The position numbers and the translations under genes are program-made. The notes under the pieces were generated by a model, which ran no database searches, had not been told where the DNA came from, and saw only the letters and a list, made by a program, of their open reading frames with translations. Positions 25,975 to 31,448 of a stretch of 35,915 bases of DNA are shown here, piece by piece. Every line of letters begins with the position of its first letter. Within the stretch, counting starts at the first letter, position 1. The stretch spans positions 1 through 35,915 of the forward strand of contig CAXUUL010000078.1 in the NCBI GenBank assembly GCA_964255285.1, given 5' to 3'. The DNA is from Ionaspis alba. Taxonomy: Eukaryota.

Positions 25975-26261
25975 TCAGAACACCTTGATTCTACTTGACG
26001 GCTATCGCAGCCCAAAACGTAGTATCCTTCCGGTCCACTCCGCCCTGTGCGGTCATTTGGGTGCACCCAATGAGACTGATTTAATTTCTCAATTGTTTCT
26101 TTCCTTCACAGTTTAGCTGAGTGTCTTATCCTCGAGACAAACCTCCCCCGTGCATCTTCCTCGTCCGCTTCGTCCTCCTTTCTTCTGTGCTCTACTTCAT
26201 AAGGCGAGCCTTGGGCAGCCTAACCTAGCGTTATCCTTGGAGAGGATTGACCATATACAAG

Positions 26262-28166
26262 ATGTCCACTCCGCGCATTCTAATCTACCTTTTCCGCCGT
26301 GATCTTCGGGTTGCCGACAACCCCATCCTTCACGAGATTTCCAGATCGTATCAGCAATCCCAACATCCATTTACCCACCTCTTACCCATCTATGTCTTTC
26401 CTGCCCAGCAGGTAGAGGTATCCGGTTTCCTCTCCTCGGAGTTCGAACGGTCACCTTTCCCAGAGGCTCGTTCCAATGCAGCTGGCTTCTGGAGATGTGG
26501 ACCTCACCGAGCCCAATTCCTGGCGGAAAGTGTATGGGACTTGAAAAAGTCATTGGAGGGGGTCGGCAGTGGCTTAGAGATACGGATCGGTATGGCGGGC
26601 CAAGTCATTAAGGAGATATTTGATGCCTACAAGCGCGACTCTTATTCCGGAGAAGTTGTGGGTGTATGGATGACGAGCGAAGAAGGCGTTGAGGAGCAAA
26701 GGGAAGAAAAGGATGTTAGACAGGCCACTGAAGGCGCTGGGCAAAGTTTCAAGCTGTGGACGGACGAGAAATATTACATAGATGAGTATGACACACCATC
26801 GACACAACATATGCTCATCTGTTGACCATCGGATAGCCGAGACCTCCCATTCAAGAACCCTCGCGATCTACCCGACGTCTTCACCACATATAGGAAGCAG
26901 GTTGAACCGCTGAGGGAGGCACCCCGACGGAGTGTCCCCAAACCCAATACATTACCGCCATTACCTCCGTCTCCCCCGCCTCAATCAGCGCCCTTCGCAA
27001 TTCCGACCACATTTGATGGACTCGTCACTTGTCTAAAAAAGCCCCTAGAAGCGAACCTTGGTTTGACCCATCCACCATCGTGGCCTCCAAATGCCAAATC
27101 CGCCCATCCTTTTCATGGCGGTGAGAAGGCTGGGCATGACCGGATCAAGCACCTCATCACAACAGGCAACATGTCGACCTACAAGGACACTCGGAATGGA
27201 ATGCTCGGCCTAGACTTCAGTACCAAACTTTCCGCCTGGTTAGCTCTTGGCTGCATCACCGCTCGTCAGACTCACGAATATCTAATCGACTTCGAGGAAG
27301 CCAAAACTGAGTTGGGCAAGGGCTCTCAAGGCTACGGCAAAGGCGAGAACAAAGGCACTGCCGCCGTGCGTTTCGAACTTCTCTGGCGAGACTACATGCG
27401 GCTGTGCACGAAGAAATTTGGTCCCCGACTGTTCCGTGTCGAGGGCTTTAGGAATGACACCTCGTACCCATGGAAATACCCACAGAAGGACAAAGATACC
27501 CAGCTCAAAGTTACTCGATTCCTCAATGGAACAACTGGAACTGGCCTGATCGATGCGAGCATGCGTGAACTCTTCCTTACCGGCTATACATCAAACCGCG
27601 CTCGGCAAAACGTTGCTTCCTTTTTGGCCAAACACCTTGGTATCGATTGGCGGATCGGAGCGGAATGGTACGAGAGTTTGCTGATAGATTACGATCTCAG
27701 CAGCAACTGGGGTAATTGGCAATACACTGCGGGCGTTGGTAATGATCCCCGCGGCGAGGCCAGAGTCTTCAACCCTGTCAAACAGGCGTTCGACTACGAT
27801 CCGGAGGGCGCGTACGTGAAGAACTGGGTAGAAGAGTTGAGGAAACTGGACGACCCTCAGTGCGTATTCCAGGCATGGAAAGTGCCAGAGGAAAGAAGGA
27901 AAGAGGTCGGGTTGGAGGGTCTCGAGTGGGTAGAACAGCCTCTGAAGAGGATCGAATTCAGGGTCGGAAAAAGCGGTGGTGGGCGCGGAGGTAGAGGAGG
28001 GGGTAAGGCCGGCAAGGCCGGTGGCAGTAGAGGAGGTGGAGGAGGAGGTGGGCATTATGGTGAAGGTGGAAGGGGTTTCTCAGGTCGGGGCAGAGGAGAG
28101 AAAACAAGGGGTCAGGGTCGTATGGGTGCGATGGACAAGGCGCACTGGAATGGGGCTGTCTACTAA
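26262..28166 (+). CDS. cry: Cryptochrome DASH with Gly/RGG-rich C-terminal tail
   Basis: Exons 26262-26785, 26837-28166; FRRDLRVADN, DLPDVFTTYRK, YKDTRNGMLGLDFSTKLSAWLALG, FELLWRDY, GYTSNRARQNVASFL, SNWGNWQYTAGVGNDPR. Confidence 0.96.
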
Positions 28167-28692
28167 TTATTGTGAGCGTGGATATCATCTCCTTGATTTT
28201 GCAGCATCTGCCAATAGCTACGATGGGACATACTAGCCTCCGTTGCGCCTGGACCTTGGTCAACCTACATTAGGGGCCTGAGCTCTGATGTCAAATTCTT
28301 GTGAAATCATGCTAAAGCTTTGAGCCTGCGTACTGAACACGATCTGGTCGACGCTATTAATGGACAGTGCGAATGATATTGAAGAACGACTGCCTTCAGT
28401 GTTCAGAATCTCAGCTGACATTGTCCCGGTATGGCTGTCTGAAAACGATAGCAGCTGTAACGAGTGCTTGGCGCAAGTTATTTCAAGAAGAGTAATGGCA
28501 GCCAAGCGGGATTACAACGGTACCAGACACATCTGTAGGAGATTGCACAAATGGTACCAGTGAAGTATTAGGAGGGAATTGAACATGCAGCCATTTTGAA
28601 ACAAAGCTAGATCTACCATGGCACAGCCATCCGAGATTGACGCTCAGACAAATGTACGCAACACGTCCGAAACCATTCCAGCACAACCCCTA

Positions 28693-29513
28693 CTACTCGA
28701 CCTTGCTATCGAAAGTCTCCCCTGCCACAAGGTCGGGAATGTCGTCATCGTCATCTTCTCCCTTCTTGTCAGCGTCCTCTCCGCCCTCCTTCTGTTGCAT
28801 GCTCTGATAGCTTTCTGCCAACTTGCGCAGAGAAGCGAGACTGTCAGGCCCAAGCTGGTTCAAGATACCGGGGACGAGTTCGGTCAATTCTTTGTCCTCG
28901 CCATTGCCGTATATTGCGAAGGTGTTCGAGGGCACCGAGGCATGAACTAGTGGATTGGGTAGTCAGTACCAGAGTATTCCACGAGAGCTGAGCCGACACA
29001 TGTGTAATGGGCGAAAAGACGGCGGAGGAAGAGTAGGCTCGTGCAAAGGCAAAATACACACCCTTTGGCGCAGCAAAGTGAATGACATTCCCATCCTCTT
29101 TGAACATGTTCACTTCCTCAATCGCTTGGATGGGTTGGGTATTCAACTTTTTCAGAGCTGTCTGGAGCTTTTTGTCATCTGTGCCTGAGCTCTTGTGGAC
29201 CTTTTTCATCTTTCTCCGTGGTGTTCCCTTTCCCCTGCGAATCGCAAGACGGTCAGCCTTCAGTAGATCAATCCGCCGTCTTCCACCACATCAAATTGGC
29301 AGTCTCAAGATCTGGACGAGGGCATTCGAGTGGTGGAGGTCGGCTTACCCTGTTTAGCATTGCGTTAGCGGGTAATTACGATTTCTTTGCAAGGGAAGAT
29401 CTGGTTCGTGCTTGAGCTCCATCGCTTAGTGCTTCTGGGAAACCGCAGTCTTGAGATTGAGACGTACCAATTCGCACCGACTGCTGCATCTTCGCTAGCT
29501 TTGCCTGATCCAT
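28693..29513 (-). CDS. EGD1: Nascent polypeptide-associated complex beta subunit (BTF3/Egd1)
   Basis: Exons 29513-29468, 29349 (1 nt), 29234-29062, 28946-28693 give [31 protein letters not shown]...[11 protein letters not shown]...[12 protein letters not shown]...[14 protein letters not shown]. Confidence 0.96.
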
Positions 29514-30318
29514 GATTTGCAAAGTTGCGGATTGGGATCACCGCACTGTCCTTGAACTGGAAGCCACAAAGATCCTGAATGGTATCAGATGTCAGATTGG
29601 ATATAGTCGATGGAATCGTAGGCACGCAGAGCCTGTGACCTTACCTGAGTGCCGAAGGTTGACGAGGCGCCTGGTCACCAATTGTATACACTCGAATCTG
29701 GAATCGACAGTGCGAGAGGAATATTGCGGCTAGTCCGCATGCCTTAGCGAGGCGGGAAGGAATTACACGCAGGCGAGGCGGCAGAGGATTAAGAATATTG
29801 ACATCAAACTGCGCGGTTGATAGAGAGCAGCGTATACATCCTCCGCACCTGTCTCGAGAGAGTCGAATGTGGAAGGCGAGCACCTCGCGGCTGACCTCCG
29901 AATTTCGACGTTGTCACCATGACTTACACGCAGGTGACGAAATGATCTGTTCACCCAAAAATATCGTATGGGAGGTTTGGTGGAAAGCCACCTAAGATCT
30001 AGTTGGCTACCTCCCCATTCTCCCAATTAACACGAACAACCTCAGCGACGCCCCAACTACGCCTATTTCAGGTTCACTGATTGTTCTGCCACCTGCGTGA
30101 CCGGTACCGCGCACACCAAGGTCTACAATTCCAATATCGATGTGTATCATATCACATCCGTCCTTATCAGTCTCGATGTTGCGTTTGCAAGCTTCGTCCG
30201 CCATTTCCCATGTATTAACGGCGTGGCTGACAAATCGTCTCATGACAGCGGTCGCGCCCCTTAAATTTACATTCGTTCTTCTGCCATTCAGAAGCACCAG
30301 CACAGTCCTGTACTTTTC

Positions 30319-31448
30319 TCAAAATACTTCTGGATCCTCAAAACCTTCCATGCCTTTTGTTATGACCTTCTCCGCCGCAGAGGCGGCCCTGCCAATCTCC
30401 CCTCCTTCACGTTTTGCTGTTTCCAACCCTCTTCTGACTGCCGTCTCAAACCTCTTCAGGTAGATGCGCTGTCGATCCTGTCGGTCCTCACATTTCTCGT
30501 TTTCCTCATCCTTTAATGAGCCGAAGAGTTGTAGATGCGCGAAGCAGTTTGATCGTGATGGCAAGACATGATTATAAGTATGTGACAACGGGAAAGGCCA
30601 TCCATGATGTATAATAGCCTGGCTGCTACCCTCTGCCAGACCAGCTTGAAGGAGTGAACCTAGGACAGTCAGGCTCTTAACAAAAGCTTTTCCTTCGCTA
30701 CCTGCCTTGCCAAACGATGCTTTAGAGGATGACCATGAAGGTGCCTTGTTATCGTTCGACCAATTGAGCATAGCCAGGAAGCATTTCAGTGTCTTTACCC
30801 AGCCGCCGGCGCAAGAAACAAGCTCGTCTCCCGCAACCGAGAGGGCCCAGGCGAGTATGTCCATTGTCGAGGTGCGAATATCGGCAGCTAGATGCGTCAT
30901 GCCGGCGCGGATGTAGAGTAAGATTTGATCGATGTGGTCTTCGACATCTCCTGGCGGTAGTGTGTGGAGGAGTTTGAGTAATTGACCGCGAACACCATTA
31001 CTACCGTCGAGGAACAAAGGCAGGATTTTGGGGAGGATGACACTGAATGGCTGATGAAGGGACGTGCCGACAGGTCGACTCGAGATTGCAGAGGTGAGAT
31101 AGCTCAGGGAATCTCTGCGCTGAGTGTCCGATCGTGAATTCAGCAGAGAAAGCTGATGACTGAACTGGGCAGAAGAAGACGGTGCAGATGTCGTTAGTGA
31201 CTGTTGGCTCAGAACGATGGCTAGCCATTAGATCAGTAAGAGTAGCTAGCTCCACAAGATCACATTGAGCATCATACCCTTAGACTTGAAACTAGTGTCC
31301 GTCGAATTCGAGGCTTTCGGACGGGCCTTGCCAACTCTTAGCTTGGGTTTCTGCAAGATTAGTTAGAAGTTGTCTAATGGAGGTAAGATAGTAGTAGTAC
31401 CTGAAAGTCTTTCTTTTTCTCCTTCTTCTTTTTCGCACTCGATCCCAT
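30319..31448 (-). CDS. IPI1: Pre-rRNA processing protein Ipi1 (Rix1 complex)
   Basis: Exons 31448-31401, 31350-31278, 31220-30319; MGSSAKKKKEKKKDFQKPKLRVGK..TDTSFKSKAIVLSQQSL, LYIRAGMTHLAADIR. Confidence 0.93.

Follow-up and report, generated by a model that had tools for sequence, protein, structure and literature searches.

Only a handful of one-nucleotide exons have been documented so far. In fungi, such an exon was described in the CYP621A P450 genes of Fusarium and presented as the first case in a fungal gene (PMC12940212). The long-read annotation of Coprinopsis cinerea additionally reports 13 genes with one-nucleotide exons, which are not named in the text (PMC12230235). As for plants, Arabidopsis APC11 contains a one-nucleotide exon, the lone base being A (A333) (PMC4674806), and the one-nucleotide microexons of APC11 and VPS55 are conserved across land plants (PMC8831610). 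Two other arrangements are close to these exons. In stwintrons, an internal intron interrupts the donor, the branch or the acceptor element of an external intron, and the external intron is functional only after the internal one is excised (PMC5587772). In the BOT1 gene of Cryptococcus neoformans, recursive splicing occurs at a zero-nucleotide exon, and the splicing intermediates have been shown (bioRxiv 10.1101/224170).

The DNA analyzed here, referred to as the window, is the whole stretch of 35,915 nucleotides from Ionaspis alba (contig CAXUUL010000078.1). It contains a fungal gene of the single-copy type that encodes the beta subunit of the nascent-polypeptide-associated complex (NAC-beta; EGD1/BTF3 family). 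According to the comparison with Pfam, exon 3 of this gene matches the NAC domain PF01849 (E = 8.9e-15, 54.8 bits at a cut-off of 21.3), and the domain is preceded by the basic N-terminal segment GKGTPRRK, as in the NAC-beta/BTF3/EGD1 family. Homologues named NAC subunit beta match at 91–96%, and BTF3 chains from PDB match with E = 1.5e-15. The coding part of the gene has the following features:

29468..29513, minus strand: exon 1, coding part, from ATG (29513-29511) to ATT G (G = 29468); the orthologous loci have the same end peptide
29350..29467, minus strand: intron 1, 118 nt, with donor GTACGT, branch motif GCTAAC (29369-29364) and acceptor AACAG
29349..29349, minus strand: probable single-nucleotide exon G, second base of the glycine codon G-G-G
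29235..29348, minus strand: intron 2, 114 nt, with donor GTAAGC, branch motif GCTGAC (29257-29252) and acceptor CGCAG
29062..29234, minus strand: exon 3, third base of the glycine codon, then 14 residues...FAAPK and the first base of a valine codon; start of the NAC domain
28947..29061, minus strand: intron 3, 115 nt, GTGTGT ... TACTGAC ... CTAG
28693..28946, minus strand: exon 4, coding part with the stop TAG, (V)HASVPSNTF...DSKVE and stop

Exon 1 thus encodes 15 residues and the first base of the split glycine codon, and exon 3 opens on the minus strand with G(29234) GGA AAG GGA ACA CCA CGG AGA AAG. Since exon 1 ends in phase 1 and exon 3 has only one base ahead of GGA AAG, a direct join of these two exons is one base short. 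When the gene is translated with this join, i.e., with the G at 29349 skipped, the frame shifts and a stop codon follows 9 codons on; retention of intron 1 leads to a stop after 30 residues, and removal of intron 1 with intron 2 kept gives GGG TAA, as read from the sequence. Both the frame and the conserved protein segment, as it stands in 30 canonical database proteins, are restored only with G 29349 included. The sequence around this base (29354-29343) reads AACAG/G/GTAAGC, where slashes mark splice junctions, so that AG precedes the G and GT follows it, and both flanking introns are of workable length, each with a donor, a branch motif and an acceptor to itself.

These features agree with the first-pass annotation of the locus, which had described two complete introns with their own branch motifs around one G; all its coordinates and the lengths of 118 and 114 nt proved to be correct. 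Its further statements, namely, that only inclusion of the G gives the conserved residues, that splicing as a single intron shifts the frame and that retention of intron 2 yields GGG TAA, were borne out by the translations and by direct reading of the window. Together with the comparative data presented below, the lone G at 29349 is very probably a genuine constitutive one-nucleotide exon that provides the middle base of a glycine codon built from three exons (G + G + N). From the relatives of this gene we infer that the G is included in the mRNA of this species.

Several other features were observed near the gene. A possible 70-nt intron in the 5' untranslated region of NAC-beta (29575-29644, minus strand; CAG/GTAAGG ... 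AATCTGAC ... ATTCAG/GATC) can be proposed from the sequence only; it is located about 60 nt upstream of the ATG. Further upstream, at position 29658, sequencing run X1 has two contig variants over 29628-29700 that differ by one G>A substitution; the variant has a depth of 27.5 versus 108 and may reflect a polymorphism in the promoter region or a repeat boundary there. The NAC-beta gene is flanked by a photolyase/cryptochrome-type gene (26229-28166, plus strand; Pfam DNA_photolyase and FAD_binding_7), which is apparently split at approximately 26825 by an intron or a frame change, and by an Ipi1/Rix1-complex gene (30319-31227, minus strand; Ipi1_N). A scan of 28600-29700 against Rfam with E up to 1 found no family, and hence no known intron-hosted snoRNA.

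The junction between intron 2 and exon 3 adjoins a run of four G (29232-29235), and if the assembly had lost a single base from this run, the true gene would have one ordinary phase-1 intron. The first-pass annotation had named a mis-assembled G-run as a case that would overturn its reading. An independently assembled Logan contig from run X1 (depth 131, length 1069 nt) reproduces 28600-29657 without a gap or a difference, and a low-depth contig from run X2 does the same for 29169-29429. The two runs come from one study, and X1 is possibly the source of the window itself, so the comparative argument is stronger than that from the read contigs. The same one-base shortfall is found in all 61 other distinct orthologous sequences described below, and 57 of the 62 sequences carry a base other than G after the second intron, so that these have no homopolymer at this place. 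An assembly error in the G-run is contradicted by both kinds of data and is considered extremely improbable.

To analyze the orthologous loci, JGI metagenome contigs were searched with exon 3 alone as the query, which makes the choice of loci independent of their intron structure. The search yielded at least 361 relatives, and the best 80 were taken; these comprised 76 unspliced loci and 4 intronless ones. The 76 unspliced loci together with the window gave 62 distinct intervening sequences. Representative loci were printed and checked by eye.

In all 62 distinct sequences, exon 1 ends with the codons for RI followed by G/GT, and the intervening DNA ends with AG/N immediately before GGA or GGC AAG, the first codons of GKGT. 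All 62 also contain an internal AG/G/GT that leaves both introns with a length of at least 40 nt; the first-pass annotation had proposed looking for AG-N-GT at this site in other EGD1 genes, and here it is present in every one. When the intron interiors were shuffled 200 times, a mean of 6.3 and a maximum of 12 of the 62 sequences had such a site, and the control pentamers AGAGT, AGCGT and AGTGT were found in 2, 5 and 5 sequences, respectively. According to the blastn comparison, the 62 sequences form 41 groups between which the intervening DNA cannot be aligned, which means that the pentamer AGGGT is conserved against complete divergence of its surroundings. Of the 62 sequences, 60 have a YTRAY branch motif a short distance before the inner acceptor; the two others (L035 and L038) lack it by the simple pattern used. 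A second AGGGT is present in seven sequences, and in each of these the branch motif accompanies one site only.

The composition of the site corresponds to a split GGN codon. The lone base is always G (62/62), as the second position of GGN requires, and the base after intron 2 varies (A in 26, C in 16, T in 15 and G in 5 sequences), as expected for the third position. Of the two donors, the inner one is uniform and strong (GTAAGC in 29 of the 62 sequences, A at +3 in 61 and G at +5 in 53), and the outer one is more varied. The median length of intron 1 in the orthologues is 98.5 nt (range 53–487 nt) and that of intron 2 is 133 nt (range 76–190 nt). Three loci (L001, L010 and L018) have an unusually long intron 1 of 475–487 nt, compared with the median of about 98 nt, and an intron 2 of only 82 nt. 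Both introns around the lone G are kept in all 41 groups, and intron 3 is present in 39 groups and absent in two. In the loci without the third intron (L002, L028, L029 and L032), exon 3 is continuous with exon 4, and both introns around the G are kept.

The four intronless contigs (L023, L046, L060 and L062) are cDNA-like and read RI-GGA/GGT-GGA AAG at the junction, where the slash separates alternative codons. All four align to full-length database proteins as one HSP, with an identity of 100% for three and of 98.7% for L046. Their best blastn identity with the genomic loci is about 79%, and no pair from the same organism is present. With AG/G/GT universal in the orthologous loci, and with the cDNA-like contigs and transcript-derived proteins reading RI-GG-KGT, the assembly of one glycine codon from three exons, as put forward in the first-pass annotation, is supported.

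Database proteins at the same junction are mostly different from this form. Among 120 homologues, 90 are wrong at this place: 44 have no exon 1, 31 have unrelated residues between RI and GKGT, 10 have a one-residue insertion (RIGxGKGT) and 5 read RIGKGT. The remaining 30 read RIGGKGT; seven of these come from named genome records, and the majority are unnamed proteins whose contigs measure about 1 kb. A further 31 named proteins comprised 12 canonical and 19 aberrant forms. These annotation scars fit a one-base shortfall at the junction, and the one-nucleotide exon would explain why most automatic gene models are wrong here. In six proteins, namely, P0185 (Orbilia brochopaga), P0019, P0065, P0091, P0097 and P0078, one of the two glycines is missing (RIGKGT). 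The cDNA-like L046 has an identity of 96.2% with the O. brochopaga protein and reads GG, whereas the annotated Orbilia form is one glycine short. The missing glycine suggests that the models of the RIGKGT proteins rely on a splice site that is shifted or non-canonical at this junction.

The proteins with the one-residue insertion correspond to another possible splicing pattern, in which a single intron of 229 nt extends from the second GT of the donor hexamer (AC/GTCTCA, 29463) to the acceptor at 29235; several gene predictors adopted this pattern in other species. In the window this intron keeps the frame and gives VRIGTGKGT, with one extra residue; besides the ten insertions among the 120 homologues, four more occur among the further named proteins (Drepanopeziza, Polyplosphaeria, Pyrenophora and Bipolaris). 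However, the donor GTCTCA has no G at +5, and 20 of the 62 orthologous sequences have no GT there. Where a GT is present, the insert would not be conserved, its residue being D, T, I, A, K, E, S or L, or else a stop, and neither the four cDNA-like contigs nor the 30 canonical proteins contain an insertion. Since the shifted donor is missing in about a third of the sequences and the insert is variable, this donor is not the biological solution. Such an intron would also leave the invariant inner AG/G/GT and its branch motif unexplained, and it is regarded as highly improbable.

The additional G could also come from one non-canonical event over 232 nt (G/TA..AG or GT..CA/G), the inner AG/G/GT being irrelevant. 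An aligner would describe an mRNA with five G in this way, and the mRNA sequence alone cannot separate this event from the removal of two introns. The genomic comparison bears on both variants of the event. In 57 of the 62 sequences, the last AG is followed by A, C or T, so that the GT..CA/G shift cannot produce the canonical GGN codon there, and the G/TA..AG shift would require TA..AG introns in all lineages. The conservation of the inner acceptor, the G, the inner donor and the branch motif across 41 groups would have no explanation either. There is therefore very little probability that a single non-canonical event provides the G.

For the one-nucleotide exon, the following course of splicing can be proposed. 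Directly behind ATT G, the coding sequence is broken by two introns of the canonical U2 type, both complete and with exactly one nucleotide between them. Intron definition is usual for short fungal introns, and each of the two would be recognized across its own length. Their removal would probably proceed in two rounds, one after the other, since simultaneous occupation of an acceptor and a donor with a spacing of 1 nt is not possible. The G would serve as the first base of the 3' exon in one round and as the last base of the 5' exon in the other, and either order of removal would give the same mRNA. Co-transcriptional kinetics would favor the removal of intron 1 first; the flanking sequence shows no constraint that reveals the order.

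The closest mechanistic precedents of the proposed course are two known types of stepwise intron removal, which it resembles in part. Stwintrons, the spliceosomal twin introns of Pezizomycotina, consist of adjacent U2 introns removed in successive rounds, as would be those of the NAC-beta site, and both give rise to spurious single introns in automatic annotation. In the [D1,2]/[A2,3] form of stwintrons, the internal introns overlap by one G, whereas the NAC-beta introns are complete and have one exonic G between them (PMC5587772). Sequential removal as in stwintrons had been suggested in the first-pass annotation; judging from the described features of the class, the comparison holds for sequential removal only and does not extend to membership, since the introns of NAC-beta are contiguous and complete and no splice signal is interrupted (PMC5587772). 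In BOT1, as in NAC-beta, an acceptor followed by a donor lies inside an apparent single long intron; its removal is stepwise in BOT1 and would be so in NAC-beta. However, the BOT1 pivot keeps no nucleotide and the outcome is the removal of one intron, whereas NAC-beta keeps a base needed for the frame (bioRxiv 10.1101/224170). The NAC-beta site is thus not a case of recursive splicing with a zero-length exon, as one G is retained and required; the logic would be analogous, with one base kept.

Among the described one-nucleotide exons, that of the Fusarium CYP621A genes shares several features with the NAC-beta site. As in NAC-beta, the pentamer is AG/G/GT, with canonical introns on either side, its lone G provides the middle base of a glycine codon within a conserved motif, and gene models are systematically wrong (PMC12940212). 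Comparative support is common to both cases, and SRA reads are available in addition for CYP621A (PMC12940212). The CYP621A exon is described for one genus and close allies (20–24 genes), whereas the NAC-beta loci are near members of five Pezizomycotina classes; the host genes also differ, being a P450 family in one case and a housekeeping ribosome-associated chaperone in the other (PMC12940212). The consulted passages of the CYP621A paper do not mention NAC-beta (PMC12940212). The exons of Coprinopsis cinerea are likewise fungal nuclear one-nucleotide exons whose omission breaks gene models, but this fungus is a basidiomycete, unlike the Pezizomycotina related to the NAC-beta loci (PMC12230235). 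The supplement files searched do not list the 13 genes and contain no match to “nascent polypeptide” (PMC12230235).

The plant APC11 and VPS55 exons are similar to that of NAC-beta in being constitutive one-nucleotide exons between two spliceosomal introns. As described, they have been kept over hundreds of millions of years; reference annotations do not contain them, and leaving them out changes the N-terminus (PMC4674806, PMC8831610). They reside in unrelated genes and were validated using RT-PCR and reporter constructs, whereas the NAC-beta exon is known from sequence (PMC4674806, PMC8831610). The first-pass annotation had called one-nucleotide exons rarely documented, which is right, but according to the two fungal reports they are no longer unprecedented in fungi (PMC12940212, PMC12230235). 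In open PMC papers and bioRxiv, no paper linking NAC-beta, EGD1 or BTF3 to a one-nucleotide exon or a stwintron was found, although an earlier mention elsewhere is possible.

The taxonomic breadth of the arrangement was assessed using the nearest named protein of each locus. Because NAC-beta is a very conserved protein of 155 aa, these labels are approximate; those given here have the highest identities with a clear margin, and intron-derived residues in mis-annotated proteins add noise. In Pleosporales, four loci (L034/42/45/79) were 99.3% identical to Ophiobolus. Leotiomycetes were represented by a locus near Hyaloscypha variabilis (L052, 98.7%) and five near other Helotiales (L038/51/58/70/72, 91–93%), and Pezizomycetes by loci near Choiromyces (L055/57/59/67, 94–95%) and Wilcoxina (L033/36/37, 91.6%). 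The closest proteins from Eurotiomycetes were those of Exophiala/Rhinocladiella (L007/54/77, 93–96%) and Trichophyton/Microsporum (L004, 89–93%), and those from Lecanoromycetes belonged to Parmeliaceae (L049/65/68, 92.6%). The nearest named relatives thus span Pezizomycetes, Leotiomycetes, Dothideomycetes, Eurotiomycetes and Lecanoromycetes within the best 80 of at least 361 matches. With the nearest relatives distributed across five classes, the arrangement is probably older than the radiation of Pezizomycotina, i.e., the one-nucleotide exon appears to predate the split of the main classes.

Skipping of the G as an NMD or autoregulatory switch had been put forward in the first-pass annotation, marked there as an inference. 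An addition compatible with the one-nucleotide exon is that selection keeps the arrangement because occasional skipping of the G produces an NMD-sensitive frameshift that tunes the dosage of NAC-beta. Consistent with this, skipping leads to the early stop already described for the window and, in 59 of the 62 sequences, to a stop inside the examined stretch of 300 nt, and both introns are retained in every group. However, intron 3, which has no such role, is kept almost as faithfully, so that retention alone is no sign of selection. In addition, short-range intron definition should make a skip over 233 nt rare. A regulatory role of this kind is therefore rather unlikely. Equally tentative, and doubtful at present, is the suggestion that the one-nucleotide exon, rather than being a frozen accident, is an ancient splicing checkpoint, inherited from the Pezizomycotina ancestor and located where the ribosome-binding segment of NAC-beta begins. 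If so, joining of donor 1 to acceptor 2 would give a frameshift targeted by NMD, the efficiency of the two-step splicing would set the dosage of NAC-beta, and the strong inner donor, with its nearly invariant A at +3, would reflect selection on splice efficiency.

The one-nucleotide exon of NAC-beta is a deeply conserved addition to a rare known class, and it is notable for its host gene and for the scale of mis-annotation. Many mis-predicted NAC-beta proteins lose the N-terminal exon or gain spurious residues by the ribosome-binding RRK motif. A simple AG/G/GT rule could correct the NAC-beta models across fungal genomes. The host is a universally expressed gene of the essential type, and, because NAC-beta is expected to be abundantly expressed, it would be an accessible natural substrate for the study of stepwise splicing in fungi.
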